Below, one piece after another: positions 1,466-49,700 of a DNA stretch of 56,421 nucleotides (the stretch's first letter is position 1; each line of letters starts with the position of its first letter). Origin of the DNA: an uncultured Bacilli bacterium. GTDB lineage: Bacteria; Bacillota_I; Bacilli_A; RFN20; CAG-826. The DNA lies in the NCBI GenBank assembly GCA_944336335.1, contig CALVLC010000036.1, positions 1 through 56,421 of the forward strand, read 5' to 3'. The translations under genes and the position numbers were made by a program. Below the pieces are notes generated by a model that worked only from the letters and a program-made list of their open reading frames with translations, had not been told where the DNA came from and made no database searches.

Positions 1466-1654
1466 CTAAAATCCAGTAATGCCCCTATATCTATATAATT
1501 GTGTTTCTTGAAACCACCGAAGAAGCGGATAATCGCACACTAATCCAATCTCAATCAGTAAAATCAATTGACTCAAAAACACACTATAATACGAATAATT
1601 TTCCCTACATAATTTACCTTTTTTTACAATAGCACTTTTTAGTGGAAACAACAA
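1466..1654 (-). CDS. Small hypothetical protein (TTG start)
   Basis: GGAG 6 nt before TTG; ends just ahead of the RBS of the next ORF; has a hydrophobic stretch and an in-frame CGG at 1517-1519. Confidence 0.35.
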   Translation of the reverse strand: MLFPLKSAIVKKGKLCRENYSYYSVFLSQLILLIEIGLVCDYPLLRWFQETQLYRYRGITGF

Positions 1655-1887
1655 TAGAAGCTCCGTTGATCCTTCAGTTTATTCCATAATCATTGTTAAA
1701 AAAAACACAACTGACCTCCTGATAACTAAAATATTAAATTCCTCATTTTTAAATTACCTAAAATGATTCAATTTCATATATTTTTTTTGATAAATGGTTA
1801 AAAGTAACTTTCAATATTCCTTGACAAACACTGTCTAACAAATTTTCTTTAAATTTAAAAATGCTAAAAAGATTTCTGTTTATTAAA

Positions 1888-3945
1888 TTAATTCAAAAAT
1901 TCCAATCTTTTAATAATATGATTTTGGTAAGCAAGGTCTAACTCATTGAAATAACCACTCCAACCCCAAACTCGAACAATCAAGTTTTTATGATCCTCAG
2001 GATGCTTTTGAGCGTCAAGCAATACATCTCGATTGACTGCGTTTAATTGAAGTTGATGCCCTTTTAAAAGAATAAAAGTTTTAACTAAAGACGCAACTTT
2101 ATCAATACCTTCTTGATTTCTAAAAAGAGTGTCATGAAATTCTAAAGTTAATGGTCCGCCATTACATGTTTTAGTTAAATCGGGTTTAGTGAAAGATTTT
2201 ATAACACTTAAAACACCATCAAAATTTCTATTCAAAGATGGCGAATAGTTGGCACTAAATGATTCTTTTGCTTTTCTTCCATCACTCGTTGCACCTAAAG
2301 TTTCACTATACCAAACATAATACATGGCCGAACCTGTCCCTGCTCTAAAAATTCCGCCTCTTCCATTCTTATATTTAGAACATTCCTCAGAAAACTTATC
2401 TAAAAGTTTGCAACCAATATTATCAACAAAATCATCGTTATTTCCCATTTTCGGTGCAGAAACTAAGTATTTTCTTAATTTCTCATAACCTTCATAATCA
2501 TTGTCAATTGCTTTTACAAGTTCTTCTTTATTAACAGTTTTGTCTTCAAAAACACATCTTTTAATAGCGGCTAAGCTATCAGCTGCAGTTGAAAGGCCGG
2601 CTCCGTGAAGACCAAAATTATTATATTTATTACCTTCTGAAATATCTTTTTTGTTCTCAACACAATTTTTCATTAATATTGATTGGAACGGAGAAGGAAT
2701 GAGGAAAATATTTCTAGTTTTATCTATTAAACGTTTGATCTCTTTTTCTATTTCTTTGTTCACAAGCTTTTCAACTTCCTCATAAGTTGTAGCACTTAAA
2801 AATCCCTTTGAGTGAATTGCTTTATCGACACATTTTGGGAAAGCTAGTGCTTCAACATTAGGAATATCCATACCATATTTTGGAATGATAAATTCCCAGC
2901 ATGCTGCGACAACATAATCTCTAGCATCTTCTTCCTTATACCCCATTTTAATAAGGGCAGGAATTACAACATCATCATTAGAATATTGAGGAAATCCTAA
3001 ACCAACTTTTGTTAATTCTGTTCCTAATTTAAACCATTTAAAATCGGTATTTTTATCAACTCTTAAGTTAATTTTAGGATCAATCAATTTTAATTCTAAA
3101 GATGCTCTTAAGCACAGTTCAGTAAGTTCGTTAAAAGCAGATGTTCCATCTCTTTTTATACCACCTAAAACAAGAGATTGACCGTTATCACCTTGTTGTT
3201 CTCCAGGATAAAGATCTGTATCAAAATTAAGAGAAATAAACAATTCTTCAGTAATATTTAAAGCGTCTTCTTCATCGATTATTTTTAAATCAATGTCATG
3301 CTTATAATATTTATACATATATTGGTCAAATCGACCAATTGTATTGTGCTTATTTCCGTTTAACCATAACGTATAGTTAATAATTCTTAAAAATAAAGCT
3401 GCTTCATAATAATTTGTGGCTCCTTCATAAGGAATTTTTTTAAGAGCTATAGCCAAAACTTTGTTATCAGCTCTTTCAGCTTCTTTTTGATATTTTTCAA
3501 TTAATGAATAAAGAGCTAAAATTGATTCTTCCATCGCTTTAAGCTCAATTTCCTCTTTATCAGTATTCTTTTCTTTAAGTTTTTCCCTTATTTCTGCAAG
3601 CCTTTTGTTAAAACCAACACTTATTGTATATTCATAATCACTAGAAATATTTGCAACTAAAGCATGATCAAAAAGAAGATAAGTTTTACTTAATTCTTCT
3701 TTTTCTTTTTCAGTCAAAATATCTGGAATATTTTTAACTGTTCTCATAAATCCAATGTGATCTTCTGGAAAAATAATAGGTTTTTCAAGCTCAACCATTT
3801 TCTTTAATCGATCACTAACTCTTAAAGGAAGTGGAACGTTATTTTTTTCATACTCTAAAGAATCATCAAATGATATATCACTTCTTAAATTACGATATTC
3901 TCTTTTCTTTAATCTTTCATAAATTTTGCTAATTCTTTCGTTCAT
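1888..3945 (-). CDS. Glycyl radical enzyme (PFL-like family, not canonical pyruvate formate-lyase)
   Basis: Gly-radical loop VRVWGWSGYF; single active-site Cys in ACWE rather than the PFL CC pair; GGPLTLE and HQLQLNAV C-terminal motifs. Likely start is ATG 3945 after AGGTG. Confidence 0.9.
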   Translation of the reverse strand: MNERISKIYERLKKREYRNLRSDISFDDSLEYEKNNVPLPLRVSDRLKKMVELEKPIIFPEDHIGFMRTVKNIPDILTEKEKEELSKTYLLFDHALVANISSDYEYTISVGFNKRLAEIREKLKEKNTDKEEIELKAMEESILALYSLIEKYQKEAERADNKVLAIALKKIPYEGATNYYEAALFLRIINYTLWLNGNKHNTIGRFDQYMYKYYKHDIDLKIIDEEDALNITEELFISLNFDTDLYPGEQQGDNGQSLVLGGIKRDGTSAFNELTELCLRASLELKLIDPKINLRVDKNTDFKWFKLGTELTKVGLGFPQYSNDDVVIPALIKMGYKEEDARDYVVAACWEFIIPKYGMDIPNVEALAFPKCVDKAIHSKGFLSATTYEEVEKLVNKEIEKEIKRLIDKTRNIFLIPSPFQSILMKNCVENKKDISEGNKYNNFGLHGAGLSTAADSLAAIKRCVFEDKTVNKEELVKAIDNDYEGYEKLRKYLVSAPKMGNNDDFVDNIGCKLLDKFSEECSKYKNGRGGIFRAGTGSAMYYVWYSETLGATSDGRKAKESFSANYSPSLNRNFDGVLSVIKSFTKPDLTKTCNGGPLTLEFHDTLFRNQEGIDKVASLVKTFILLKGHQLQLNAVNRDVLLDAQKHPEDHKNLIVRVWGWSGYFNELDLAYQNHIIKRLEFLN

Positions 3946-3954
3946 AACTATCAC

Positions 3955-4806
3955 CTATAACACTCTTACTTCAATATCATTCGCTTTAAATAAATCTAAA
4001 TGTGGGTTTGACTCCATATTTTCATCATACATCGGTTCAAACTTTAAACCGGCTAATTTATATTTACTACCTGCATATTTGTTATATGGAAGTAGTTCTA
4101 CTCTAACTAAATCTTTAGCTCCTTTAATTTTGTTTATGATTTCTTTTAAATTTTCTTTTGTATCAATTACACCTGGGATTAAAGGAACTCTAATTATAAA
4201 CTTCGTTTTTGAATTTTTAAGAATCTCCAGATTTTTAAAAATTAAACTGTTGTCAATCCCTTCAAACTTTTTGGCTTGCTCTTCGTCCATCACTTTCATA
4301 TCAAATAAAACTAAATCAATATTGTCGATAATTTCTTTAAATTTTTGAGAATTTCCATATCCAGAAGTTTGAAGAGCAATATGAGTTTTTCCTTTTAGAC
4401 ATTTAACAAGTTCTAGCGTTTCGTCAACTTGAAAAAGTGGTTCACCTCCACTAATAGTAATTCCACCGTTATTAATCTTTAATATATCAGCATTCTTTAG
4501 AAGCTTGCTTACTAATTCACTTACTTCATAATCTATTGCTGACATTCTTATTAAATCACGAGGACAGACATCAACACATTTTGCGCATCCAATACACTTC
4601 TTTCTATTGTATTCGCAAATTTCAATGCATCTGCCACAATTTAGACATCTATTAGGACTCCTTAATGAAACATTTCCAAATCTTTTCCCTTCAGGAGAAT
4701 GGCACCAATTGCAATTTAAAGGACAACCTTTAAGAAAAACAGTTGTTCTTATTCCAGGCCCATCGTAAACACTAAACTCTTCTATTGAAAAAACTCTAAT
4801 TTTCAT
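3955..4806 (-). CDS. Glycyl-radical enzyme activating enzyme (radical SAM with ferredoxin-like insert)
   Basis: DGPGIRTTVFLKGCPLNCNWCH, CxxCxxC insert, GGITISGGEP, ELLPYN; abuts the GRE gene. Confidence 0.93.
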   Translation of the reverse strand: MKIRVFSIEEFSVYDGPGIRTTVFLKGCPLNCNWCHSPEGKRFGNVSLRSPNRCLNCGRCIEICEYNRKKCIGCAKCVDVCPRDLIRMSAIDYEVSELVSKLLKNADILKINNGGITISGGEPLFQVDETLELVKCLKGKTHIALQTSGYGNSQKFKEIIDNIDLVLFDMKVMDEEQAKKFEGIDNSLIFKNLEILKNSKTKFIIRVPLIPGVIDTKENLKEIINKIKGAKDLVRVELLPYNKYAGSKYKLAGLKFEPMYDENMESNPHLDLFKANDIEVRVL

Positions 4807-4840
4807 TTTTAGCTATATATATCTTTAATATTTGAGTTTG

Positions 4841-4889
4841 AAAAAAGCAGTAAATTTGCAATTTAATATTGCAAATCACTGCTTTTTTT
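4841..4889. terminator. Long inverted repeat with A/T tails; intrinsic terminator or mRNA-stabilising hairpin
   Basis: AAAAAAGCAG..TTTGCAAT / ATTGCAAA..CTGCTTTTTT immediately after the GH127 stop. Confidence 0.7.
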
Positions 4890-4900
4890 CTTAAAAATTT

Positions 4901-7900
4901 CTATTCAGCTTCTTTAATCCAAACAACCATTTTTTGTTCTTGTGGATCTCTATTTCCTCTCAAATAGAATGGGATTAAAGTTAATTCTCTAACTCTTCCA
5001 TCTTTATTTCCATTAACTTTTAAGATGTTTGTTGGAATAGCGTAAGAGGTCTCTTCATCAATTTTTCTAACAAAAGTTGTTTCATCAAGTTCCACTCTTA
5101 CTTCTTCAGTTTTGGTGATAGTAATTGTATCATCATCGATAAAGTTTTTGTTGTCAATTCTTTCAGCACAATAAACTAATGGTCCATATTTGAAAGCAAC
5201 TCTACCTTGATTTTCTTCTTCATAGTCTTGATACATTCTCATTACTTGTCTATCAAAAGTAATTTCAACTTCATGTTTACCAGAAGCAAGTTCAAAGTTA
5301 ATGTATCCGTCTTCACTAACATTAAATGTATAAGTCAATCCATCAACTTTAATGTCAGCTTTTGTGGACCATGATGGCATTCTAACTTTTAAGTTATATT
5401 TGCCTTCACTTCTGCTTTCAAATTTCATAACGTTTCCTGTTGGAACATCAGAATATTGAATTAATTGAACCTTTGTATTTCCAACTTTTGAATCAAATGT
5501 TGAAGAAACATATTGATTTATAAATAATGTGTCTTCGCTCTTAGCATAAATAATTTCTGGTAACTCAGAATAATATTTTAAGAACATTGGAACACAACAT
5601 GGAGTGACATTTGAGAATTGTGGTCTAACATAGTTGTCTGAAATCATTGGGTTTGTATAATAGAAACTATTTCCATCTAAACCTAAGCAACCAAGAATGC
5701 CATTGTACATTTCAAGTTCAACTTGATCAGCATATTTTGCATCGCCAAAAATGTTAAACATATTTTGACTATAGAAAGCCATACCAACAGAAGCACATGT
5801 TTCACAATATCCATCATGCGGTAATTGATTTGTTCCACCATAAGCTTCATCACCATTCTTTGTTGAACCAGTTCCGCCTGTAATATACATTTGTGAATTT
5901 ACAATGTTATTCCAAATTGAATAAGCAGCTTCAGCAAATGAAAAGTTTTCTTCTTTGTTTGCTAAATATGCCATGCCATTGTACCAAAGATTTGCTCTAA
6001 CTGCGTGTCCTTGAGCTTCTGTAATTTCTCTATAATCTTGATTATCTTGAGCATAAGCACCATTTGAAGTATTGTTATATCTACCCTCTGTGTGACCTCT
6101 TTCAGTAATCCAAGAACAAGCGATGTCATTATATTTATCAAATCTGATATCTAAAGAATAATATCTATCTGATGGGCTGACTCCTTCAAGATTAGAATAT
6201 TTTTTCTCCATATATTCTACTAATTCTGGATTTTCTTTATATAAGAGATAAAGATTTTCCATGGCTTCTTCTGGGAGTTCATGAGGTGGAACAACCATAT
6301 AACCTTGGAAACCATCTCTTCCATAAATATAGTCAACAATAAATTCAGCAAAACGAGTTGCAGCAAATAATAATCTTGTATCGCCAGTGGCTCTATACCA
6401 ATAAGTTGCAGCTTCAGCTAAACAACCAAAGTTATATAAGTCATGGTGCCATCTTCCAGCTGCTTCAGTTTCATCACAAACATAATCATACTTTAATATA
6501 TTATATGTTGAGAAGTAGCCATCAACTGGTTTCCCTCTTCCATCTTTTGCTGTAGTTTTCTTACTTGCTTCAAAGATTTGTTCAATATATTTATCAACTC
6601 TTTCTTGTAATTGATAAGCACTACCAGATAATTTGCTATCATCTTTATTTGTATAAATAAATGCAGCAGCTGCTCTAATACCTTCATAGATTAAACCTTC
6701 TCTCCAAGGTTCATCAATCCATGTCCATGTTGTATTATTAACGTTAGTTGCATCATCTGGTCTTCTAACTTGTCCAGCATGATCAGATAAATTTCCTAAA
6801 ATATGTTTTTCACCTTTTGCAACGCGATCAAAGTTATCAAAAGAATTTGATAGTTCGAACATATCAAACATAAAGTTTACTGTATGAGTTGAATATTGTT
6901 CATACATGTTTGACCAGAAGCCATCGTTTAACTTGACTTCATTTGAAGTTGTTCTTTGAATTTCGTTGAAATCGTATTGCATTTTTTCTCCTTTTATTGT
7001 GTATGTTCTACTATTTTTTCCGCTTCCAACAACAACTTCAAAATGATTGGCGCCAACTTCATTTACAGTTGCTGTATCATCAGAATAATATGTCTCAAAA
7101 GCTATGCTCTCTTTTTTGATATCTTCTTCTAATAATAACGGATAAGAATATGTTGTTGGCGAGAACCCTTTTACTGTTTCACCATTAATTGTGAGATCAC
7201 TTAATGCATTTTCATGTAAATATTCTAATCCCCATTTGCTCTCTAAATAAGCTTCAACAGTTTGATATTCTCCATCTGTTAGACCCCTGTTAAATACAAG
7301 AATTTCCCCTAAATCTCCAGTAAAAGAATCGTTTTCTGCGCTTCCTCCAAGAGAAACAGGAGCTTCAATATCAGGTGTTTTTGTTGAGCCTTTAAATGAT
7401 GATTCAATTGTGCCATTGACACCTACATCAGCGTCTTCGCCACTCTTTCTTCCAGAAATAATTACTGGTGATTCATAATCAAATGATACTTTTGCTTGAT
7501 AATAACTACCTTCTTTAACAGCATCGGCCCAGCCATAATTTAGTTGACTACCTTCAATGTTGAAGAACCGTTCATGATTCCATGGTGAACCATTTGTTAA
7601 GTGCGAGAAAATATCGGCATGATCATAAAGTTCATCAAACTTAGCAACAACAAATATGGTCATATCGTCTAAATTGAATCCAGTATCAGCACCTACTTGC
7701 ATATAAGAATTTCTTGAAAATCTTACTGCAGGTTTCCCGTTTAGTTCACTTGATTTAACAAAACTTGGTTGACGTGCCGAATTATCTTGAGCCGCATCAC
7801 CGTTTCCTTCAAGAGTATATGGTGCTAAGTTTTCTAATGTTGAAACTTTACTTCCATCTTCTAAATCTAATGTAGAAGCATCAAATCTAACCTCTAACCC

Positions 7901-8035
7901 ATCAATTGTTGACAAAACGTCTTCATTTACTGTTTCTGCCTTTGTTTCTTTGCTACTAAATGGAGCTAAACTATTAACAGAACTTAGAATTGTTGATGCC
8001 GATATAACCATCAACGTACAAATTTTTTTAATCAT
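4901..8035 (-). CDS. Secreted multidomain GH127-family glycosidase (beta-L-arabinofuranosidase-like) with N-terminal LamG-like and beta-sandwich domains
   Basis: Signal peptide; HDLYNFGCLAEAA, GHAVRA, YCETCASVG and PCC motifs match the HypBA1-type E-x-C / CC zinc site; FKYGPLVYCAE; LIPFY. Confidence 0.85.
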   Translation of the reverse strand: MIKKICTLMVISASTILSSVNSLAPFSSKETKAETVNEDVLSTIDGLEVRFDASTLDLEDGSKVSTLENLAPYTLEGNGDAAQDNSARQPSFVKSSELNGKPAVRFSRNSYMQVGADTGFNLDDMTIFVVAKFDELYDHADIFSHLTNGSPWNHERFFNIEGSQLNYGWADAVKEGSYYQAKVSFDYESPVIISGRKSGEDADVGVNGTIESSFKGSTKTPDIEAPVSLGGSAENDSFTGDLGEILVFNRGLTDGEYQTVEAYLESKWGLEYLHENALSDLTINGETVKGFSPTTYSYPLLLEEDIKKESIAFETYYSDDTATVNEVGANHFEVVVGSGKNSRTYTIKGEKMQYDFNEIQRTTSNEVKLNDGFWSNMYEQYSTHTVNFMFDMFELSNSFDNFDRVAKGEKHILGNLSDHAGQVRRPDDATNVNNTTWTWIDEPWREGLIYEGIRAAAAFIYTNKDDSKLSGSAYQLQERVDKYIEQIFEASKKTTAKDGRGKPVDGYFSTYNILKYDYVCDETEAAGRWHHDLYNFGCLAEAATYWYRATGDTRLLFAATRFAEFIVDYIYGRDGFQGYMVVPPHELPEEAMENLYLLYKENPELVEYMEKKYSNLEGVSPSDRYYSLDIRFDKYNDIACSWITERGHTEGRYNNTSNGAYAQDNQDYREITEAQGHAVRANLWYNGMAYLANKEENFSFAEAAYSIWNNIVNSQMYITGGTGSTKNGDEAYGGTNQLPHDGYCETCASVGMAFYSQNMFNIFGDAKYADQVELEMYNGILGCLGLDGNSFYYTNPMISDNYVRPQFSNVTPCCVPMFLKYYSELPEIIYAKSEDTLFINQYVSSTFDSKVGNTKVQLIQYSDVPTGNVMKFESRSEGKYNLKVRMPSWSTKADIKVDGLTYTFNVSEDGYINFELASGKHEVEITFDRQVMRMYQDYEEENQGRVAFKYGPLVYCAERIDNKNFIDDDTITITKTEEVRVELDETTFVRKIDEETSYAIPTNILKVNGNKDGRVRELTLIPFYLRGNRDPQEQKMVVWIKEAE

Positions 8036-8055
8036 ATTAATTACGTCTCCAAAAA

Positions 8056-8904
8056 TTATTTTGTTTTAAGAAATAGTTCAAGAGAATTTGAATAAATTGA
8101 TCTCATTTTAGTAGGTGTCATTTTATAAAATTCTTTGAACTGCCTCATAAAATATTCAGCCGAACTATAATTCAAACTTATTGCAATTGATTCAATAGTA
8201 TCATCGCTATTTAAAAGCATCTTTTTTGCTTCTTCCATTTTCATTTTTAAAATATATTTTAATGGAGAAATGCCAAGATATTCTTTAAAAAGCATATAAA
8301 TATACTTCTCACTGTATCCAAATTTTTCTGCTAAATCTGCGATTTTAATATCTGCATGTTGAAAGTTGTTATCAATATAACTAACCATCGCATTAAATCT
8401 TTTATTTTTAAATGCTGGAACATTGATATTATTTTCTAGGGAGAATTCTTCAATTATTGTAGTTAATAATAAGTCTCTAATTCTCTTTGTATCTTTATTC
8501 TTATAGTCATATTGTTCAAGTTGATATGACAAAGTCAAAATATATTCAGGGAAGTTTGTTGAAAACTTGATTGGTAATATATAGTGATTGCCTTTCTTTC
8601 TATATTTTTCAACTTCATCTTCTTCAACAATTTTAGAATCAGCAGGTAAATAGAAATGATGCCAATGAAGAACGCAATCTGTTGCCTTAAGTCCATAATG
8701 TTTTATTCCTCCAGGAAGAAGAAATAAATCGTTTTTCTTTAAGCAATAATCTTCAAGATGATGGATTAATATTTCGCCGCTCACAATAAACATAAGCTCA
8801 GTTTCATTCATAGTTCTTGTTTCATGAACGTGATGCTTATTGTGTGCAATTCCGCTTTGCACGTGCTCAATTAATCCATTTTTCTTAAAGACAATATATT
8901 TCAT
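8056..8904 (-). CDS. AraC-family transcriptional regulator
   Basis: N-terminal cupin-like sensor; C-terminal double HTH (IADLAEKFGYSEKYIYMLFK; YFMRQFKEFYKMTP). Confidence 0.92.
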   Translation of the reverse strand: MKYIVFKKNGLIEHVQSGIAHNKHHVHETRTMNETELMFIVSGEILIHHLEDYCLKKNDLFLLPGGIKHYGLKATDCVLHWHHFYLPADSKIVEEDEVEKYRKKGNHYILPIKFSTNFPEYILTLSYQLEQYDYKNKDTKRIRDLLLTTIIEEFSLENNINVPAFKNKRFNAMVSYIDNNFQHADIKIADLAEKFGYSEKYIYMLFKEYLGISPLKYILKMKMEEAKKMLLNSDDTIESIAISLNYSSAEYFMRQFKEFYKMTPTKMRSIYSNSLELFLKTK

Positions 8905-8913
8905 ATTTTATAA

Positions 8914-16732: not shown

Positions 16733-19378
16733 TTATTTAATATAGATTTTTATTATATTTTCTTGGTCTAACCCACTTGATACATCAACACTTAAAACAT
16801 CACTATCTCTAGATCCGCCTTCTGTTGAGAATGGGAAACCATTATCTTTTTGAATTATATTTGCTGAAACTAAGCTGTCGTTTACAGTAACTTTTTTGAT
16901 GTTTGCAAAATCGCCAACTTGATGAATTCTAAAGTTCATTTCTCTCTTTGAGAATGCATCGCCTCCATCAAATTCACCTTCACTCTTACCAACTTTAACT
17001 ACAAAACAGCCTTCTTCTTCATCAAAATAAGATTCATAAGGAGTTTTACGGTTTTGTCCGTATTTATAAGCTGTTGTTTCTGTGTCATCTTCATAAAGAT
17101 AGCTTGAAGAACTTCCAGTTTTACTTGGATAAACATCATATGTGATCTGGCTCCAATCAAATTTAGAAGTGTTATCTTGATAGTCAAGTAATGGAGTTAC
17201 ACTACCTAATTTCACAAAAATAGGGCTTTCTTCTAAGGTAAACTTCTCAATATATGATTTTTTACCTTCATAAACTTCTCCGCTAAAAACGTTTAACCAT
17301 TCGCCTTCTGGTAAATAGAAACTCTTTGTATCTAAACCACTTGTATTTTTATAATTCAAAGTTAAATAAGCATTACCAGAACCTTCATAATATTCAACTC
17401 TAATGTTATAAGATTTATTAGCTTTTAAGTCTCCAATTTCATAGGTGACGCTATCATTTGCCATCCATTTATCTAAAACTAATTCGTCATCGATATAAAC
17501 TCTAACACCATCATCAACAGTCAAAGCAAAAGATGTATCTTGAGTTGGAGTAATTTTAGCTTCAAATTTTCCAGAGAAATTATCAGCATTTACTCCGGCA
17601 ATTGGAGAAGATGAACCCCATTGGAAATCAAAAGTATTATATTCCATTGTTGCAGCAGGTTCGCCATCTAAACTTGTATTGTTGTAATAAGTTGCTTTAA
17701 CAGTTCCATCAATCCAATCAACAGGAATTGAATTATAAATATCATCTGTAATTGGAGCAAAAAGAATATTATCCCCTAATGTCCATTCATCATATCTAGC
17801 AGCATTTTTATCATCAGCCCAATTAAATTCAAGAGATCTTACTAATGGTAAACCAGTATCCCAGTTTTCATAAGCAAGTTGATAGAAAAGACCAAGAAGT
17901 CTATATCTCATCTTCATGTATTCTCTTGAAATATTTAAAGCTTCTTCTCCATATAACCATGGTTGTCTATATCTTTGATTATATTTCGATGAATGAGGTC
18001 TAAAAATAGGCGTTAAAGCACCATATTGAATCCATCTTGTGTAAAGTTCGTTTGATGGATTTCCTTGGTGTCCTCCAAGATCGCTATTAAGATATGCAAT
18101 ATCATTGATTCCACCTTTAATCATGTTTGCTACTTCTTGAGCAAGAGAATATGCAGGTGAATAAATATCACCAGTCCAGGTCATAGAGTAGCGATGAGAT
18201 GCAGTATTTTTAATATCTCTATATGCACCATGATAAATATCATCAGCATTAGCCATAATAATTGGTCTTCTATAAATCTGTTCACTTCCGGCTAACTCTT
18301 GGAAAGCATGTTCAGTAACATCATGGAAAAGATACATGCCCCAAGTTTCAGGATTAATTGAAGAAATTGGAGTATCCAAAGCAACGGACCGGTTACGATC
18401 ATACCACCAATAATCTAAACCCATCTTTAAATATTTAGTTAAATTATCTTCTCTATATTTAACATCGATTGGATCGAGTAAAGATGAAGATCCTTCAGCA
18501 GGTTCTGGGTGATCATTAAACATAATGTCAATGCCAAGTTCTTCACAATCAGTCAAAAAGCCTTCCATATCTGGGAATAAATCGGTATTAACATCATAGC
18601 CAATACCATCTGCACCATACGATCTTCTCCAGTCAGTATCGATGACCATATTATCTAAAGGAAGGTCATATTTATCATATTGAGCAATTTCTTCTAAAGC
18701 TGTTTTATCTGAATATGCGTAATACTTTGAATCCCAAACACCTAAAGTTTGAAGTCTTACCATTTCGGCTTTTCCAGTAAGATTTGTGTAAAGTTTTCTT
18801 AACTTGCGTCCATCTTTTAAAGGTGTAACAACATAAACATCTCTAACATCATCTTCAATAACATAATCACTTAATTCATCTGCATCACTTCGATATGTAT
18901 AACCACCATCTGGAATTAAAATACGAGGCGAATCAGCAATGGCGAAGGCATTTGGTGTCGCTCTAGGTGATGGTAATTCACCACTATTGGCAATGTCTTT
19001 ATACTCGTAAATTTTTGTTTGTTTATAAGTGATATAAATTCCTTCTAAAGTACCCGCACTTGGTACATAGATTTCAGTATCGCCTAAATCAATTACATGA
19101 TAGCCATCTTTATCTTCCTCTGTGAAAACTGCACCTTTATAATCATCACGGTTTGGAATAAAGAATGTGTTTTCATCTTCAAATCCACCTTTATATTTTT
19201 CTTCAAATCTAAAGGTATTTTCATCAAGAATTTGAACTCTAACGTCTCCAACAATAATGTTTCCAATTGATGGATTTTGTGGCTTGTTATTGTCATCATT
19301 ATTTACAGGTGTTCCTCCACAGGAAGAAAGTAAAAAACAAGAGATAATAAAGCCAACCGATAAGAACTTATGCTTCAT
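16733..19378 (-). CDS. GH31-family glycosidase lipoprotein with inserted PA14 domain
   Basis: LSSC lipobox; WWYDRN nucleophile region, HRYSMTWTGDI acid/base region, RWIQYGALTPIFRPHS; PA14 motifs VDDGVRVYID and RVEYYEGSG. Confidence 0.87.
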   Translation of the reverse strand: MKHKFLSVGFIISCFLLSSCGGTPVNNDDNNKPQNPSIGNIIVGDVRVQILDENTFRFEEKYKGGFEDENTFFIPNRDDYKGAVFTEEDKDGYHVIDLGDTEIYVPSAGTLEGIYITYKQTKIYEYKDIANSGELPSPRATPNAFAIADSPRILIPDGGYTYRSDADELSDYVIEDDVRDVYVVTPLKDGRKLRKLYTNLTGKAEMVRLQTLGVWDSKYYAYSDKTALEEIAQYDKYDLPLDNMVIDTDWRRSYGADGIGYDVNTDLFPDMEGFLTDCEELGIDIMFNDHPEPAEGSSSLLDPIDVKYREDNLTKYLKMGLDYWWYDRNRSVALDTPISSINPETWGMYLFHDVTEHAFQELAGSEQIYRRPIIMANADDIYHGAYRDIKNTASHRYSMTWTGDIYSPAYSLAQEVANMIKGGINDIAYLNSDLGGHQGNPSNELYTRWIQYGALTPIFRPHSSKYNQRYRQPWLYGEEALNISREYMKMRYRLLGLFYQLAYENWDTGLPLVRSLEFNWADDKNAARYDEWTLGDNILFAPITDDIYNSIPVDWIDGTVKATYYNNTSLDGEPAATMEYNTFDFQWGSSSPIAGVNADNFSGKFEAKITPTQDTSFALTVDDGVRVYIDDELVLDKWMANDSVTYEIGDLKANKSYNIRVEYYEGSGNAYLTLNYKNTSGLDTKSFYLPEGEWLNVFSGEVYEGKKSYIEKFTLEESPIFVKLGSVTPLLDYQDNTSKFDWSQITYDVYPSKTGSSSSYLYEDDTETTAYKYGQNRKTPYESYFDEEEGCFVVKVGKSEGEFDGGDAFSKREMNFRIHQVGDFANIKKVTVNDSLVSANIIQKDNGFPFSTEGGSRDSDVLSVDVSSGLDQENIIKIYIK

Positions 19379-40793: not shown

Positions 40794-40854
40794 TTTGCTT
40801 TTCCTCGCTTTGTTAATTCAATATTATTGCATTAATTTTTGTAAGTCAATAAAA

Positions 40855-40876: not shown

Positions 40877-40918
40877 ATTGAATAAAATGCGATAACCACC
40901 GATAAAATCTCTATTGCA

Positions 40919-40938
40919 TTACATTAAAATTAATGTAA
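40919..40938. promoter_or_regulatory. Best-matching copy of TTACATTA-N4-TAATGTAA
   Basis: TTACATTAAAATTAATGTAA ending 9 nt before the LacI start. Confidence 0.6.
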
Positions 40939-40947
40939 AATAGAGAT

Positions 40948-41934: not shown

Positions 41935-42002
41935 ATTATCAATTAATTCTTAAAAACACATTAGTTTTGCAAGGATTTTGGAGTCAAATCCTAGTTTCAA
42001 TT

Positions 42003-42048
42003 TTAAAAAGTTCCCTTTTCAAACTAAGTTACAAAGGGAACTTTTTAA
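42003..42048. terminator. Bidirectional intrinsic terminator
   Basis: AAAAAGTTCCCTTT / AAAGGGAACTTTTT between convergent frames. Confidence 0.75.
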
Positions 42049-42059
42049 TTCGTTAACAA

Positions 42060-42453
42060 CTATTTTGTAGATCCAATAATGTCTCCAAAATCAGTACCAA
42101 CAGCTGTGATCTTTCCATGGTTTTTATTGCTTGCATCAGCAGTGCCACCAGTTAAAGCTCCGCTTATACCACCAACTTTATTGTTACCTGAAATATCTCC
42201 AAAGTTTTGACAGTTTGTAATAGTTACATTACATGTATTTTTAATGGTTCCTCCTAGTATACCACCAACACCATTATCACTACTTTCAATGTCGCCATTA
42301 TTAAATACAGCCATCAATGTTTCCTTGTGAATTAGTAACTGCGCAACCAGCAATACCACCAGTATAAACAGCTTCATTTGTTACTTTGCCATTGTTCACA
42401 TTGTTCTTTATATTTCCACTCTTGAATGTACCAACAATGCCACCAACAAATCT
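42060..42453 (-). pseudogene. 3' fragment of a GLUG-repeat protein gene, frameshifted near 42306
   Basis: RFVGGIVGTFKSGNIKNNVNNGKV..YTGGIAGC.. then a 1-nt shift into FNNGDIESSDNGVGGILGG..VGGISGAL; no start codon or signal peptide. Confidence 0.72.
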
Positions 42454-43042
42454 AAAACCACAATGAGACAGTATTTAAATTCTTGCTATTGTCAACTCTT
42501 CTTTTTTAATAGAGTCACCTTTAAGTCCAGCAATAAGGTTTTGAACACATTCATATTCTAATAAAGAATCATCAATTTGATTTTCTTTTAGATATTCATA
42601 TATTGCATCATAAAAGTATCCTTCTAAAGTTTCACCATATACTTTAGTATACTTTTTAAATTCTTCCTCAGCTTCTTTAGATAGGTTTATTTCTACTCCA
42701 ACTTCTTCGTTATCTTTTAAATAATTTTTATATTTATTTTCATCTTTTTGTTTTGCTTCAACAAAACCAGCTTGTTCTAAATAAGTATATATTTCTTCTG
42801 CTTCAACAAAAGTAATCTTATAAATCTTAACTATTCTAGAAAAGTTAAATCTTTCATTATTATTAGTGATTCGATTAATAATGTCTTTTGTAATTTCACT
42901 ATCTTTCCATTTAAAAGAACTTTTGATCAAAGAAATATATTTATTCATTCTTCTTTCAATCATTCCTTCTAGAGTTGTATTTTCTTTGTTAAGTAACTCA
43001 TTAAGTCTGTTATAAGCTTCTTTTTGATATTTTAATTTTCAT
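42454..43042 (-). pseudogene. Pseudogene paralogous to 280-915
   Basis: ATG at 43042. Removing one A from the run at 43021-43025 gives MKIKISKEAYNRLNELL.., colinear with 280-915. TAA at 42475-42477 falls where the paralogue has Gln. Confidence 0.8.
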
Positions 43043-43479
43043 AATCTCTCTTCCTTTACTAGTACTTTAAATCATTTGAGGTGAAAATGGAAATATATTC
43101 TAAATATAAATAATATTTAAATAAGATTTCATATACTTAAAACAAAAATTTAAGTCAAATTGCATATAATTACAACTTAGAAAACACAAGAGTTGTCTAT
43201 AATTACAAAATAAGAAGAATTATATAGGTAATTTTACTGGCGAATAGTGGATGATAATAAAAATATCAAAGAACCAAGTTTTAACAAGAAAAGAGATATA
43301 TAGTTACTAAATAAAAATATTTCTAAAGATTGTACTAAAGCATTTAGGGAAAATTGAAAATAAAGATAAAACTTTAATAAGGTTACCAATAATAGCAAAT
43401 GTAATAACAACTAAAGCTCTACTACGTTTTTAAAAATTTAGGTTAGTTTTGTGAGGTTTTTGGAGTTTTTTAAAGGTTT

Positions 43480-45050
43480 TTAATACCTTCCATAATCAAA
43501 CATATCTTTCATTTTCTTAGACCAAGGTAAGACTTCCTCAATGTCGAAGCCTTCTTCGTAACCTAATGTTCCTATAAGATAAGAAAGATATTCAATAGTG
43601 TCTAAATCATTCTTCAAAGAGCTTTCTATAAGGCTAAATAATGATGATGTAATTGGAGCAAAAACTTTACTATTTCCTTTACTTACATAGAACTTAGCCC
43701 CACCTAAAAGCACTTTATAGGATGAGTAATCTATGTCTATACTAATTTTCCCATTATTTAAAAATGCATATATATTCGCTTTTGCTTTTAAAAGTAGTTC
43801 TAACTTTTGCTTTGTTGATTTACTCCCCTTTTCTTTGATGGATTCTACATAATCAAAGAACTTGTTAATTAAAGGAATCAATATTCGATTTCTTTCTTTT
43901 GCAATAGCTTTTTCATCATTCTTATTTTTTCTTCGATTTCTTGCGCATTAAGAATCATATCAAAGTTCATTTCATTAAGATCGATTAACTCTTTTTCAAG
44001 TTAGGTATATTTAGTAGAAGTTAAGAAAGTATCGATTTCTCTAAAAGTAACTACTTCTTTAATCTTTTCTGAATTAGTAATTCCAACTTCATCAACATCA
44101 AGGATAAGATATATTAAGTCTTGATTGTTACTTAACTCATTTAATTTTGAAATCAAATCATCTGATACATCAAAGATTGAAAATTTCTTTTCACTTATTG
44201 CTGAACCAAATATATTCAAGTAGATTTCTCCAGCTTTACGAACTTTTTGGTTCTTAACATCAAGAATATCAATTGGTAATCTACTTAACTTAAAGACATC
44301 TATATCTTCAGCAGCTTCTTTTACTCTATTTATAACTGGTTTAATAATCTCATAGGCTCTAAAAAAGTGATTTGCTAAAGTTTCTTCAGTGATTTCAATT
44401 CTACAATCATCTTTTAAATATTTTGTAGCAAGATATAAAGGATAGTCATTTAAGAAGCATTCAAATAGCAGAAATGAAATTAATGATGGAGATATAAGTT
44501 CATCATCAAATAACTTAGTAGCCTTTGTATCTTCTTCATATATTACCTTACCTTGATTACCATCCTTTTTAAGATACTAATATGTATTGCAACGAGCAAG
44601 ATAAACTTTGTCCTTTAGATTAAATTCTAATTTCTTTGCTATAGTTATTTTATTTAGTTTCTTTAACGAAGGATCATCATCAATTGTTATATTAATATGA
44701 GTTTTCTTTAAATGACTTTCATCAATTTTAACAAATGGTTTAAAGGCCTCGGGACTCTTTTTAATGAACCCACTTGGTAACTTTTTAACTGTCTCATTTA
44801 TAGACGATGAATTCTTATATAACTCATAAGAATCATCTATATCACTAAAATAAATAAGTTTTGAATCACTATTTACATTCTTTTGAAGTATATAAGTTAA
44901 GATTCGTATTAATTTAAGTGATTCTTCTTTGCAATCATTAATTTTTGTTAAAGCTACTATCAAAAACTTTTGTTTTCTATGTTTTCCTGAAGCTTTGTTA
45001 TTTCTTCATCAAAATTTATGTTCTTCTCTTCTTACTTCATGTATTTAATT
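43480..45050 (-). mobile_element. Highly diverged, disrupted IS66-family TnpC-like transposase remnant
   Basis: ISPSLISFLLFECFLNDYPLY..ITEETLANHFFRAYEIIKPV, FLNNGKISID and SLFSLIESSLKNDLDTIEYLSYLI..IEEVLPWS match IS66 TnpC patterns; in-frame TAG at 44577-44579; frameshifts around 43880-44000. Left boundary is approximate. Confidence 0.62.
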
Positions 45051-45339
45051 TAAGCATTAATTAATATGAAAATCTATATTTCTTGTTTAACATAAACCGT
45101 ATGCTAAAATTATCGGAAGAAACAACATAACACAATAAACAATTTTCCATTCAAATTAATAACTTTTTGTGGGTAATTATTTAAATAAAAAAATTGAAAA
45201 ATTTGAATCTGTAATAATGTACTTGAATTTTGCCATATAGAATATCCTCCGTAATATCTTTATTTGGTATGATTTGAGTTAACATATTTAATTAATAAAA
45301 CCTAATATAAATAAAACATTTAAAAAACCTTATATTTCG

Positions 45340-46614
45340 TTAATCAATTTCTTTTATAGGCAAATATGGAATTCCAAATTTTAAAACTTTTTTTCTAAGA
45401 TTGCTTTCTTTATTTGCATAATAGGATGATAAATAATTTCTTTTAAGTTCTGTAAGAGTTGAAATCGAAATATCACTTAGCCCGTTTTCTTTACAGGAAA
45501 AATAATGGTCTTTTTCGCGTTGCATTTCTTTTGGTAGAGAATCAAAAAGTGCGGATCCTATCATATAATCTAAGATTTTAATGTTAATTTGATCTAAATG
45601 CAAAGAAGAAATAAAATCAAAGTTTTCTAAAATCATTTCAACGGTTTCAATAGGAGAACCAATAATAAAATTACCAACTGTAAAAATGCCTTTAGTATTT
45701 GCATAAGTAATAATATCAATTATTTTTTCCTTTGAAATGTTTTTGTTATAAAATCTTAATACTTTTTCAGAAGAATTTTCTAATCCAAAACTAATAATTT
45801 TTACATTAGCATCGTAGGCTAAATCTAATAAATCAAAATCAATGTTTACTGTACTACTTAATGCGATATGCATATCATCAGAAATATTAAATTGTTTTAG
45901 CGCGTTTAAAATATTTTTCGCTCTATTTAAATCAAAAGTAAAATTATCATCTATAATCCAAACATTTTTTACACCCCTTTTTTTTAAATCAAGAAAATCT
46001 GAAATTATATAATCAAGCGAATGTGTTTTATATTGTGAATACCGCCCTTTTCTCTGACAAAAAGAACAGTTATTTAAACAACCTTGAGATGTTTGTATAA
46101 TGTTGGAAAAATTATTTAGTTTATAAAAAGGAATTTGATTTAATAAATCTCTATCAGGAAGGGGTAAGTCATCATATCTTATAATGTCAGAAAAATTGTT
46201 GTTTCCAATGAAATTACCTATAATTTTACAGATATTAAATCTTGGATCTGACTTACAAGTAAAATCGGCATAAGGTATATCTTCTTTTTTTGTTGCACAT
46301 AAATATCCAAACGCAATTACATTAGCATTTGTTGATTTCTTAATCTTACAAATTAAATCATAACCAGAATAAATGTTTTCTGATCTTTTAAGCGAAAAAG
46401 AATCAAAATCAACGAGCACAAAATCTATTGACTTAGAATTAATAAATTCAACTATTGTTCCATCATCAATTTCTTGGCATGATAAATCAAAAAAATAATT
46501 GTCAGATTGGAATGTTTTTTTTAGAATAGCAGATAAATAAGTAATATTAATAGAATACCCGAAACGGAAATGCTTTTTTTCGGTAGGTTTTGGATATATA
46601 AATAAACATTTCAT
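45340..46614 (-). CDS. B12-binding-type radical SAM protein (putative class B methyltransferase)
   Basis: N-terminal Rossmann-like domain (LFIYP..ITYLSAIL); QTSQGCLNNCSFC; IDDNF; SFGLENSSE; GNFIIGSPIET. Confidence 0.82.
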   Translation of the reverse strand: MKCLFIYPKPTEKKHFRFGYSINITYLSAILKKTFQSDNYFFDLSCQEIDDGTIVEFINSKSIDFVLVDFDSFSLKRSENIYSGYDLICKIKKSTNANVIAFGYLCATKKEDIPYADFTCKSDPRFNICKIIGNFIGNNNFSDIIRYDDLPLPDRDLLNQIPFYKLNNFSNIIQTSQGCLNNCSFCQRKGRYSQYKTHSLDYIISDFLDLKKRGVKNVWIIDDNFTFDLNRAKNILNALKQFNISDDMHIALSSTVNIDFDLLDLAYDANVKIISFGLENSSEKVLRFYNKNISKEKIIDIITYANTKGIFTVGNFIIGSPIETVEMILENFDFISSLHLDQINIKILDYMIGSALFDSLPKEMQREKDHYFSCKENGLSDISISTLTELKRNYLSSYYANKESNLRKKVLKFGIPYLPIKEID

Positions 46615-47390
46615 TTTTTCTCAACCTCGATCAACGCTCTTAGACCCCATGCTCCTCCGTCTTCTATCTCATGGTAAGGCCATAATCCATTAGTAATTTG
46701 AGTATTAACTAAAAAGTTATAGGCCTTCCTAATAGGCGAATCATAGTCAATATTTAAATATTCAATCAGAGCAATAATAGCTATTCCTGTGCAGTAAACG
46801 TTCGAACCTACAGGGTGCCCTTTCCAAGGCGCAAATCCTCCATTATCTTCTTGTTGTGTTAAAAGCCACAAAAGTGTATCATGTACAATTTTTTCTTTGC
46901 GCAAGGTCGGTTTTTTTGAAGCAGCCATTAAAAAATAAGCGGCTTTATAAGTAAGAGAATTTTTTTCGGACTCCCACAATTTTTTAAGTTCATTATATTT
47001 TTCTTCACTTCTTAACTCAGGAATCAAATAAAGCAAAATTCCAGTTACAGGAATTCTAGCAATATCCCTTTTTGTTCTTCCCCGAATTAAATTTTCTTTT
47101 TGAGATTTGAGCCGCTCAATTGCCTTTAATCTATTTTGTTCAAATTCTTCGAAATGAGAAAGAAAATATATTGTCCATATAGTATCAGTGTTGCCAACAA
47201 AACCTCCGTCATCTCTTTGCGATGAAACCACTTTTTCAATAAAAGCTTTTGGAATTGATTTAGTAGACATCCCGGCTAACAACAATTGAGAAAATAACTT
47301 GATCTGTCTCCCTAATTCTAAATCTTTCTTTCTCATTTCTTGTGTCATTTTATATAAACACATAAAAGCTTTATCGCTATAAACACTCAT
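46611..47390 (-). CDS. Prenyltransferase/squalene-oxidase-repeat (alpha/alpha barrel) protein
   Basis: QW-type repeats: VSSQRDDGGF, WLLTQQEDNGGF, FLVNTQITNGLW; AIE[CGG]LKSQ. Confidence 0.78.
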   Translation of the reverse strand: MSVYSDKAFMCLYKMTQEMRKKDLELGRQIKLFSQLLLAGMSTKSIPKAFIEKVVSSQRDDGGFVGNTDTIWTIYFLSHFEEFEQNRLKAIERLKSQKENLIRGRTKRDIARIPVTGILLYLIPELRSEEKYNELKKLWESEKNSLTYKAAYFLMAASKKPTLRKEKIVHDTLLWLLTQQEDNGGFAPWKGHPVGSNVYCTGIAIIALIEYLNIDYDSPIRKAYNFLVNTQITNGLWPYHEIEDGGAWGLRALIEVEKK

Positions 47391-48243
47391 AAAAATTAGA
47401 TTCCTTATTTAAAAAAATATCATTAATATCAGTAATATCCAGGAGCCACATAACAAATCTATCAATTCCAAAACCAAAACCTGCTTTTGGTTCTATATTG
47501 TTTTTAGCTGCATCTAAAAACCAACCCATCTTATCGGCAAACTTTAAAAAAGTAAATTTTTTTAAATAAAACTCGTAAGACGTTTCTCTTACTGAATATT
47601 CCACTATCTCACCAATGCGAGGGAAAATTAAATTTCCAGAAAAACCCTTTTTTGCTCTCCACGAAAACGATGTCGGTAGATTAGCCAAAAAAATAGGAAT
47701 TTTTGTTTTTTTACATAAAATATTAGAAACTTCATCAACATTGCCGCGCGAATCTCCAAGCAATTTATCCACCTTTAAAAAATCATAAACGGGGAAAAAA
47801 TTTTTAAAAATTTCCTTTTTATTAATAATAGTTATTTGATTACTTTCTAAATAATTATTAAATTTTTGTATCAAAAAATTTATAAAATGAAATAATAAAT
47901 TTTCAACTTCTATTAAAGTCCCGCAATTCCATTCAACCTCAAGTAAATGGAACTCAGATAAATGTGTTTCATCATTTAAATCATTTCTAAAAGCATGTGT
48001 AACTGTATATATATTCCCAAAAGTCGAAGATAAAGCAGAAAGTTTTAAAGAATTCGATGGTGTCAAAAATAGTGAGTTATTTTTTCCAAAATAAATTGTG
48101 TTTTTAAGGTTATCTACATATTTTTTTTGAACTATGTTTGTATCAACAAAAACAAAATTTTCGTTTTTAAAAAATTCATGAATATATAAAATAACATTTG
48201 AAAGAATCACAAAATAACAATCCTTTTTATTCAACTTTTCCAT
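47377..48243 (-). CDS. Class II aaRS (AsnRS/AspRS-like) catalytic-domain-only paralogue
   Basis: Motif 1 region (HEFFKNENFVFVDT), motif 2 AFRND..HLSEFHLLEVE, motif 3 GFGFGIDRFVMWL; 288 aa with no anticodon-binding OB fold. Confidence 0.85.
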   Translation of the reverse strand: MEKLNKKDCYFVILSNVILYIHEFFKNENFVFVDTNIVQKKYVDNLKNTIYFGKNNSLFLTPSNSLKLSALSSTFGNIYTVTHAFRNDLNDETHLSEFHLLEVEWNCGTLIEVENLLFHFINFLIQKFNNYLESNQITIINKKEIFKNFFPVYDFLKVDKLLGDSRGNVDEVSNILCKKTKIPIFLANLPTSFSWRAKKGFSGNLIFPRIGEIVEYSVRETSYEFYLKKFTFLKFADKMGWFLDAAKNNIEPKAGFGFGIDRFVMWLLDITDINDIFLNKESNFYECL

Positions 48244-49420
48244 AAGTCCAATTCAAAATCCTTGTGCCAAATGACATTTCAAATCCAAAAGAAGTAAAAA
48301 GTCTTATTATTTTTTCATTGTTTGAAAAAGTCTTAGCAATTATATTTGGAAAAATATTACAAAAAAATTCCAAAGCAAATTTAGAAATACCTTTTCCTCT
48401 TTCTTCAGGGAATATGTATATTTCCTCTAATACATGAATATTATGTAATCTTCCACTTTCTCTCATATAACCTACTAGTTTATCTTTTTCTAATATTGCA
48501 AAAGTATGCTTACATGAATTTAAATCTTTTAAAATAGAGCCTCTTTTATCATTAAATGATAAAAACTTTTTATCAATCTCGCTCATTTCTAATAGTTTCT
48601 TCTTTAATATATTTAAATAACAGGGCTTCATTATAACAACGGAGATTTTTGGCAAAGGCTTTTGATCTAAAAAAAGTTTCTTTGAAGTATTATAAAAAAT
48701 ATCTTGTAAAGTACCATTGTCAAAAAAAGAACAAAAAGACTTTATTTCTTCACGATAAGTATATCCTTTCGTAAAATAAATTTTTCCGAAAGGATAATCT
48801 GTACCAAACAAAATCCTGTTAGAGCCAACTATTTTAATTGCATCTAAAATAGTTTGATAATTTCCAACAGTCGACGTCTCAAAATAAACGTTATCGTAGT
48901 TTTTTAGTTTCTTTACATTTTCTAAAACCATATCACTTTCATAAATATGCCCTCTACCCATATGAGCTAAAATGATATCTAATTTAGGTGCAACTCTCAG
49001 TATTTTTTTGATTTGCTTTGGCTTATCAAGAAATGCCGCGTGTATAATAAGTGGTCTTTTATAATACTCTAAAATTTTATAATACAAATAAAGAGAACTT
49101 GAGGGTATCTTTTCGTAGACTACATGGTATTTAGCGCCTTTGAATCCGTTAAAAATATTTTCAACCAAAAAATCATCAAATCTTACAATTGGTAAAATTC
49201 TACCATTAGAATTTATCATAGCCGAAAGCAAGTATTCATTATTTTTATTAGAATCATATCCCATGTCAGGAATCGGTAATCCACAACAAAAATCAACACC
49301 ATTATCATCCATTATTTTTAAAAATGAAGGATAATCATTGTTTAAATTATAATGAAAATTGCTCTCCGAAATTTTGAAATCTTCTAAGCCAAAATGAACA
49401 TGACTATCAATTATTTTCAT
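48227..49420 (-). CDS. Amidohydrolase_2-family metallohydrolase fused to a C-terminal GNAT-like domain
   Basis: IIDSHVH, IIHA, ILAHMG, LFGTDYPF; C-terminal IYIFPEERGKGIS acetyl-CoA motif. Confidence 0.82.
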   Translation of the reverse strand: MKIIDSHVHFGLEDFKISESNFHYNLNNDYPSFLKIMDDNGVDFCCGLPIPDMGYDSNKNNEYLLSAMINSNGRILPIVRFDDFLVENIFNGFKGAKYHVVYEKIPSSSLYLYYKILEYYKRPLIIHAAFLDKPKQIKKILRVAPKLDIILAHMGRGHIYESDMVLENVKKLKNYDNVYFETSTVGNYQTILDAIKIVGSNRILFGTDYPFGKIYFTKGYTYREEIKSFCSFFDNGTLQDIFYNTSKKLFLDQKPLPKISVVIMKPCYLNILKKKLLEMSEIDKKFLSFNDKRGSILKDLNSCKHTFAILEKDKLVGYMRESGRLHNIHVLEEIYIFPEERGKGISKFALEFFCNIFPNIIAKTFSNNEKIIRLFTSFGFEMSFGTRILNWTYGKVE

Positions 49421-49700
49421 CTATTTCTACTAAAAATATAATTTTCTTTTGCAATGCTTCGGAATAAAACAATAATATATCGTCTTTTAAAGTGGTTTTT
49501 TCCACATCAAAAATTTTTGTTAACTCATTTACAATATCATCAATATTTCTTTTTCCATCAGCATTTTCAAGCATTTTAAATGACACTAAGTTTAATCTAT
49601 ACTGATTCCCATCATTCACATTTAAAGCCCGAAAAGAATTGTTTACACTTTTTAGAATAACATCATCATTCAACTTTAAAATTGTTCTTCCATCCAACAT
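49407..49700 (-). CDS. PqqD-family RiPP recognition element
   Basis: 97 aa; GNQYRLNLVSFKMLENADGKRNIDDIVNELTKIFDV..DILLF pattern; GGAGG RBS inside the upstream gene. Confidence 0.87.
   Translation of the reverse strand: MLDGRTILKLNDDVILKSVNNSFRALNVNDGNQYRLNLVSFKMLENADGKRNIDDIVNELTKIFDVEKTTLKDDILLFYSEALQKKIIFLVEIDENN

Follow-up and report, generated by a model that had tools for sequence, protein, structure and literature searches.

The uncultured Bacilli bacterium studied here very probably decodes CGG as tryptophan, as judged from its DNA and that of its relatives. CGG acts as a synonym of TGG in homologue columns, in comparisons with two congeners, in the ValRS gene and in keeping with the tRNA set, and the reassignment proposed in an earlier note is thus supported. 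The codon change itself is already known. It was published in 2021 as an Arg-to-Trp change of CGG in a clade of RFN20 Bacilli, GTDB genus UBA4855 (Shulgina and Eddy 2021, eLife 10:e71402, PMC8629427), which has since been named Candidatus Onthovivens (NAR 2026, PMC13092985). The earlier note rightly pointed to this uncultivated clade, into which the genome falls.

The source genome is that of a low-GC gut bacterium and is represented by a MAG that is only 80% complete. The window, the whole stretch of 56,421 nucleotides that was analysed, has a GC content of 0.30. The organism appears to belong to Onthovivens, the GTDB genus once called UBA4855, in order RFN20 of the Bacilli. This placement, and with it the assignment to the RFN20 clade that Shulgina and Eddy (2021) described, is indirect because it was made through a published tRNA-Trp: that of Onthovivens sp002451465 (PMC13092985, supplementary file 4) matches at 74/74 positions in five genomes of the source organism's genus. 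The content of GC, the usage of codons and the set of tRNAs agree with the rows published for UBA4855 (PMC8629427, Figure 4-source data 1).

Seven CCG triplets on the plus strand, which read as CGG on the minus strand, had been singled out in the window, at 1517, 7568, 18389, 46042, 47082, 47112 and 49629. All seven were verified and the peptide contexts quoted for them match. An ORF scan of both strands (at least 80 aa; 17,071 codons) returned exactly the last six as in-frame CGG codons, so the fear that others had been overlooked was unfounded. The plus strand holds 123 CCG triplets, with the majority of genes on the minus strand; a frame would therefore be expected to contain about 40, and six or seven in frame represents a strong depletion. 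The claim that every one of the seven lies in a real ORF holds for the six, which are in supported genes. It fails for 1517-1519 on the minus strand, which sits in a doubtful 62-aa ORF with a TTG start (1466-1654). This ORF has no Pfam match, and neither tblastn nor blastn finds a counterpart of it in the source genome or in 1.1 Mb of its closest relative, so the codon is not countable as coding and is probably non-coding.

Tryptophan is found under four of the six supported sites when the proteins are aligned to homologues, and arginine was seen at none. All six codons are on the minus strand. Codon 156 of a GH127-type beta-L-arabinofuranosidase gene (4901-8035; Pfam PF07944, PF20736, PF20737) is CGG at 7568-7570, where 8/8 homologues have W in the motif WNHNW. 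In a GH31 gene with a PA14 domain (16733-19378; PF01055) codon 330, at 18389-18391, corresponds to TGG in 12/12 homologues within the motif LDYWWYDRN[W], and a paralogue in the source genome itself, on contig C23, is among them. Codon 191 of a radical SAM gene (45340-46614), at 46042-46044, lies in a homologue column that is W in 119/119 sequences, and the neighbouring R, K and G are likewise conserved. A gene of prenyltransferase/terpene-cyclase fold (46611-47390) carries two CGG codons. Codon 93, at 47112-47114, was singled out in the context KAIE*LKSQ as a position where Trp is expected, and it is indeed W in 111 of 119 homologues and Y in the other eight.

The remaining two sites are less telling. 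Codon 103 of the prenyltransferase-fold gene, at 47082-47084, marks an F/Y position rather than a conserved Trp: its column has F (86), Y (25), L (6) and W (2) with no R among 119 homologues, directly before an invariant G-R; an aromatic residue fits there, and the site is without diagnostic value for Trp. Codon 24 of a gene for a 97-aa PqqD-like (RRE) protein (49407-49700; PF05402), at 49629-49631, has W in 8/10 of the nearest homologues. The full column at this site is a mixture of aromatic and hydrophobic residues (W 18, V 17, Y 12, I 10, L 6), and R is absent from its seven commonest residues.

Codon usage was counted genome-wide in a clean set of contigs, every one below 0.345 GC and most at 0.27-0.32; the contigs removed had a GC of 0.35-0.71. 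CGG makes up 152 of 487,000 codons in this clean part (0.31 per 1000), against 3,117 TGG, and thus 4.6% of Trp codons. The whole-assembly rate of 1.77 per 1000 is misleading, being inflated by the removed contigs: short high-GC contigs carry 829 of the 981 in-frame CGG codons of the assembly. The dominant Arg codon is AGA, and AGG is rare (19 per 10,000). TGA was claimed to be a true stop, and the three cited examples (36425, 46611 and 54766) all sit at gene ends. Genome-wide, TGA terminates 187 of 1,332 ORFs, and coding density is not raised when it is treated as a sense codon.

The closest relative, G067, has a ValRS 91% identical to that of the source genome. All but its last 0.5 Mb was compared, as was part of a second congener, G016; 67 of the 152 CGG sites had no alignable relative in this DNA. 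The comparison of the source genome with G067 used HSPs with 60% identity or more, which span 221,687 aligned codons in 585 genes. In these, CGG and TGG interchange at orthologous sites, and CGG is never paired with AGA, CGN other than itself, AGG or Lys codons. The 57 aligned CGG codons of the source lie opposite TGG (41), CGG (14) or TTT (2), with no Arg or Lys codon among them. Source TGG is opposite TGG 1187 times and CGG 29 times (n=1245). Thus 96.5% of CGG and 97.7% of TGG are paired with TGG or CGG. In the reverse direction CGG of G067 is opposite TGG (29), CGG (14) and GAA (1) in the source genome. Neither TGG nor CGG stands opposite any of 7,126 aligned CGT, CGC, CGA, AGA or AGG codons.

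Pooling of G067 and G016 gave 76 well-aligned CGG sites. TGG (53) or CGG (13) is opposite 66 of these, Tyr or Phe codons are opposite six and other codons opposite four. A few CGG sites are matched by a non-aromatic residue, K, N, H and R once each, all in alignments of 41-57% identity. The R case falls at a variable position in an ABC ATPase paralogue that lies on a short contig. Among paralogues within the genome the majority residue is W at 16 of 47 CGG sites and R at two. In ValRS, the motif NKI[CGG]NSARF has TGG in 28/29 species of the genus, and CGG occurs independently in one other species.

G016 provides a control of polarity from within the genus. Its own CGG codons are opposite AGA, CGT, CGA or AAA of the source genome in 8/8 cases, and CGG of the source is opposite TGG of G016 in 10/12. 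These pairings indicate that G016 uses CGG as Arg. CGA in the source genome is opposite AGA, CGT and CGA, and also Lys and similar codons, and never TGG.

A search was recommended for a tRNA with anticodon CCG and Trp identity elements, and one was found. The only tRNA(CCG) of the genome lies outside the window, on contig C37 (6658-6731), and has A1:U72, G73 and U20 in place of the ArgRS determinant A20. The published criteria for Trp identity are G73 and no A20, with A/G1:U72 as support (PMC8629427, Methods), and all of these features are present. The same type also turned up in 28 further species of the genus. G73 and U20 occur in 29/29 of the recovered tRNAs, source included, and A/G1:U72 in 25/29. 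In the genus-wide comparison of isoacceptors tRNA(CCG) is nearest tRNA-Trp, with a mean identity of 0.60-0.62 versus at most 0.55 for the others. It likely arose by duplication of tRNA-Trp; the origin is graded as only likely because this nearness appears in the genus-wide comparison alone, and against the genome's own tRNAs tRNA-Trp is no closer than Gly or Thr tRNAs. tRNA(CCG) evolves much faster than tRNA-Trp(CCA), with a mean pairwise identity across the genus of 0.71 versus 0.89.

For the Arg codons, ARAGORN found two tRNA(ACG) and one tRNA(CCU) in the whole assembly. tRNA(UCG) was not found, an absence that is provisional because the MAG is 80% complete; tRNA(UCU) was likewise not found in the MAG. 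The set agrees with a presumed ICG form of tRNA(ACG) reading CGU, CGC and CGA, and a gene for a TadA-like deaminase is present at C33:19933-20397. A second TrpRS dedicated to tRNA(CCG) was searched for in the source genome and a single TrpRS, at C30:15544-16545, was found. We infer a division in which tRNA(ICG) would read CGU, CGC and CGA as Arg, and CGG would be left to the dedicated tRNA(CCG), charged with Trp by the single TrpRS. Historically, low GC may have pushed CGG near extinction. Loss of tRNA(UCG) would then have freed the codon, which would have been captured by a tRNA nearest tRNA-Trp, and TGG-to-CGG transitions would now be slowly refilling it.

The organism resembles the published UBA4855/Onthovivens genomes in genus, codon change, GC (0.30), dominance of AGA and a CGG usage below 6 per 10,000. 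It also shares the tRNA(CCG) type (G73, no A20, A/G1:U72) and a set of ACG and CCG without UCG. It differs in that its species is absent from the few assemblies listed in 2021. CGG usage, 3.1 per 10,000 counted over all ORFs of the clean contigs, is slightly higher than the published 0.9-2.5, which was counted in Pfam-aligned columns. Of the 60 representatives of species of the genus in the present collection, about 31 have tRNA(CCG), compared with four species called Trp in 2021 (PMC8629427). CGG-to-Trp has also been reported in Anaerococcus (PMC8629427), which shares the codon, the new amino acid, the kind of tRNA(CCG), low GC and the lack of tRNA(UCG). Anaerococcus makes common use of AGG (70-140 per 10,000), unlike the source genome. 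The Anaerococcus lineage is unrelated (Clostridia), and its change is therefore an independent event.

Two other codes were compared and rejected. Mycoplasma capricolum, according to Oba et al. 1991 as cited in PMC8629427, leaves CGG unassigned. On that account it is a similar low-GC Bacilli relative with a small genome, in which CGG is nearly gone and has no Arg tRNA. The source genome differs from what is described there in having a tRNA(CCG) and CGG at conserved Trp sites, with 152 in-frame CGG codons in clean contigs, so its CGG is reassigned rather than unassigned. The presence of tRNA(ACG) distinguishes the source genome from Absconditabacteria, in which UGA is Gly and both CGA and CGG are Trp. 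What that code has in common with the present one is a Trp-like tRNA(CCG) that decodes CGG as Trp. The source genome departs from it in that TGA is a stop, as the 187 TGA-ended ORFs show, and CGA, without pairing to TGG, stays Arg.

Under the standard code CGG would be Arg, and the sites would be Trp-to-Arg substitutions or decaying genes. This is hardly credible. ARAGORN does call tRNA(CCG) Arg, by anticodon alone, and in one ABC-ATPase paralogue the residue aligned with CGG is R. The tRNA lacks A20, though, the CGG-bearing genes are intact and conserved, G016 displays the contrasting CGG=Arg pattern within the genus, and the two zero counts against Arg codons (0/57 and 0/7,126) point the other way. 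It is just as improbable that T-to-C errors in the assembly gave rise to the CGG codons, or that C-to-U editing of mRNA corrects them. CGG is one transition away from TGG, and no further support was found for such an origin; 14 orthologous CGG codons are common to the independently assembled G067, and a dedicated tRNA(CCG) is present across the genus. C-to-U editing of mRNA is not known to occur in bacteria.

Ambiguous decoding is the least improbable of the rivals, and still very unlikely. Here tRNA(CCG) would be charged mainly by TrpRS and partly by ArgRS, or tRNA-Arg(ICG) would slowly misread CGG, giving a mixture of Trp and Arg. C35 and G36 are the anticodon determinants of ArgRS; tRNA(CCG) retains both and lacks only A20, and some Arg charging is therefore possible. 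The codon is also still rare among Trp codons, and ambiguity of this kind is not detectable by computation (PMC8629427). Against it, CGG occupies invariant, structurally important Trp positions of essential genes such as ValRS, and its conservation is close to that of TGG, which argues against a costly Arg fraction. For some Onthovivens species a mixed reading, suggested by the retained C35 and G36 and the fast evolution of tRNA(CCG), is improbable too, if a shade less so. Were it true, Onthovivens, in which CGG=Arg species also occur next to CGG=Trp species, would offer a natural series of stages in the reassignment of a sense codon.

Decoding of CGG as Trp has practical consequences. The provided translations would be wrong at the CGG sites, as the earlier note warned: table-11 annotations of the source genome and its relatives give Arg in place of Trp, at about 150 sites in the source genome, including invariant Trp residues of ValRS, the radical SAM enzyme, GH31 and GH127. 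The code change could also escape an automatic code caller in this assembly, owing to contamination by short high-GC contigs. Sense-codon reassignments are rare in bacteria, and CGG=Trp of Onthovivens has so far been predicted by computation only. The source genome provides an independent confirmation at the level of DNA, with a control from its own genus, which by these comparisons would contain about 30 species with CGG=Trp alongside species with CGG=Arg.

The window is contig C36 of a metagenome-assembled genome (MAG) of 2.0 Mb and 169 contigs, and almost every gene in the window is encoded on the minus strand. An earlier note had counted seven in-frame CGG codons and read them as probable tryptophan. 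A mechanical ORF scan (at least 80 aa, longest non-overlapping; 17,071 codons) recovers six of these on the minus strand, seen as CCG on the plus strand at 7568, 18389, 46042, 47082, 47112 and 49629, and the peptide contexts described for them were reproduced. The seventh (1517, minus strand) is in frame solely within a 62-aa TTG-start ORF (1466-1654) that lacks a Pfam match and resembles nothing else, as protein or as DNA, in the genome or in 1.1 Mb of G067, the closest relative. This ORF was not counted as coding. The plus strand of the window carries 123 CCG triplets against the six in frame, so CGG is strongly underrepresented as a codon.

Alignment to homologues, which the note had proposed as a check, identifies an arginine position at none of the six sites. 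Judged by these columns, four are conserved tryptophans and two aromatic or hydrophobic positions. Tryptophan is found in 119 of 119 homologues at 46042 (radical SAM gene), in all eight at 7568 (GH127 fusion protein, motif WNHNW), and as TGG in 12 of 12, including a paralogue from the same genome, at 18389 (GH31 plus PA14 gene, motif LDYWWYDRN[W]). The prenyltransferase-fold protein contains two sites. At 47112, where tryptophan had been expected in the context KAIE*LKSQ, 111 of 119 homologues have W and 8 have Y; the 47082 column holds F 86, Y 25, L 6, W 2 and never R. At 49629 (PqqD-like RRE), W occurs in 8 of the 10 nearest homologues, and the full column is mixed (W 18, V 17, Y 12, I 10), with R absent among the commonest residues listed.

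The GH31 subfamily (window 16733-19378, minus strand; contig C23 of the same genome, 5541-8057) has YWWYDRN-W where a distant G067 GH31 paralogue has IWCDMN-E, so that the CGG-encoded tryptophan stands opposite a glutamate of that paralogue. A single operon (45340-50885), which encodes the radical SAM, prenyltransferase-fold and PqqD-like RRE proteins, holds four of the six CGG codons counted as coding.

About 60 short contigs of the assembly (in the range C65-C169) have a GC of 0.35-0.71 and 5-50 CGG per 1000 codons, and are contamination from high-GC organisms. The assembly has 981 in-frame CGG codons in all, and 829 of them come from these contigs, so the Codetta run on the whole assembly that the note had proposed could be misled, and automated prediction of the code from the full MAG could return CGG = Arg. 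The analysis was therefore limited to the 109 contigs with GC below 0.345, which total 1.74 Mb and hold 1,332 ORFs of 100 aa or longer. These contain 152 CGG (0.31 per 1000) and 3,117 TGG codons, together with AGA 10,176, CGT 2,613, CGA 1,020, AGG 917 and CGC 542.

G067 is the closest species representative by ValRS identity (91%), and 1.096 Mb of it was compared. Codon pairs were tabulated from tblastn HSPs with 60% identity or more (585 genes, 221,687 codons). The 57 aligned CGG codons of the window genome stand opposite TGG 41, CGG 14 and TTT 2 times, and its 1,245 aligned TGG codons opposite TGG 1,187 and CGG 29 times. Conversely, 44 G067 CGG codons pair with TGG 29, CGG 14 and GAA 1. The five ordinary arginine codons swap freely among themselves and with AAA and AAG, but in 0 of 7,126 aligned cases with TGG or CGG. 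This exchange pattern makes CGG a synonym of TGG in the window genome, and not of the arginine codons. The ValRS motif NKI[CGG]NSARF agrees: within the genus, 28 of 29 species have TGG at this codon, and one other has CGG independently. Paralogues within the genome at 47 CGG sites place W under 16 and R under 2.

The control species G016 comes from a congeneric subclade that lacks the special tRNA(CCG); 681 kb was compared. Its CGG codons stand opposite window-genome AGA 4, CGT 2, CGA 1 and AAA 1, so the method does detect CGG = Arg where the code has it, whereas window-genome CGG is opposite G016 TGG in 10 of 12 cases. By this control, the reassignment is a derived state in the genus. G067 and G016 together give 76 well-aligned sites: TGG 53, CGG 13, Tyr/Phe codons 6, and AAT, AAA, CAT and AGG one each. 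The lone AGG belongs to an ABC-ATPase paralogue on a contig of 5 kb, where the position is variable. Of the CGG sites, 67 lie in genes that have no alignable relative in the DNA compared.

ARAGORN identifies a single tRNA(CCG) (C37:6658-6731), two tRNA-Arg(ACG), one tRNA-Arg(CCU) and one tRNA-Trp(CCA), and no tRNA(UCG) in this 80% complete MAG. Shulgina and Eddy (PMC8629427) take G73 without A20 as the mark of a provisional Trp acceptor, with A/G1:U72 as support. The 74-nt tRNA(CCG) has A1:U72, G73, and U20 replacing the arginine determinant A20, and thus qualifies as a provisional Trp acceptor; the note had said to look for such a tRNA-CCG. Its D-loop (7 nt) and variable loop (4 nt) are as in tRNA-Trp, and its 5-bp anticodon stem closes with U31-G39. 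Because it keeps C35 and G36, partial charging with arginine may also occur. This tRNA type is widespread in the genus: 29 genes were recovered, including this one, and each carries G73 and U20, with U72 in 25. Genus-wide, tRNA-Trp(CCA) is the isoacceptor closest to the family (mean identity 0.60-0.62, versus at most 0.55 for every other isoacceptor and 0.52 for tRNA-Arg(ACG)), and the family diverges faster than tRNA-Trp (mean pairwise identity within family 0.71 versus 0.89; loci L175-L204 and L145-L174). The genome encodes one TrpRS, which would charge tRNA(CCG) with tryptophan, and a TadA-like deaminase; tRNA(ICG) would read CGU, CGC and CGA. All three standard stop codons (TGA, TAG, TAA) are in use, in agreement with the note on TGA.

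Outside the window, two phage-like contigs of the assembly, C113 (19,591 bp) and C159 (20,640 bp), use TAG as a sense codon. With TAG read through, coding density is 0.93 instead of 0.69 on C113 and 0.99 instead of 0.67 on C159. Their putative portal and terminase ORFs, assigned by eye, contain 9-14 in-frame TAG, and a 4,709-aa ORF contains 58. On C113 an 89-nt tRNA(CTA) (17693-17781) adjoins an odd 71-nt tRNA(CTG). The two contigs probably come from a phage of the crAss-like or Lak kind that has recoded TAG and was binned together with its host.

CGG = Trp was predicted for an uncultivated RFN20 Bacilli clade in 2021 (PMC8629427). The source data for the GTDB genus UBA4855 in that paper list four species called Trp, with GC 0.27-0.30, 0.9-2.5 CGG per 10,000 codons, tRNA(ACG) and tRNA(CCG) present and tRNA(UCG) absent; UBA4855 sp002451465 is the CGG = Arg outgroup with tRNA(UCG). 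In a 2026 NAR paper (PMC13092985) the genus bears the name Onthovivens, and the 74-nt tRNA-Trp sequence of Onthovivens sp002451465 is given. This sequence matches at 74/74 positions in five congeners of the window genome, which form the subclade without Trp-type tRNA(CCG), and at 80-95% in the rest of the genus. Together with the UBA4855 data, the match places the window genome in Onthovivens of the reassigned clade, to which the note had pointed. Trp-type tRNA(CCG) is missing from about half of the 60 species representatives, including a subclade in which CGG stands for arginine.

CGG = Trp here is a rediscovery of a published prediction. The additions are modest: a DNA-level table of TGG/CGG exchange, a within-genus control, and a count of the species carrying the tRNA (approximately 31 of 60). 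For the proteins of the 45340-50885 operon, models or expression constructs require W at the CGG codons.
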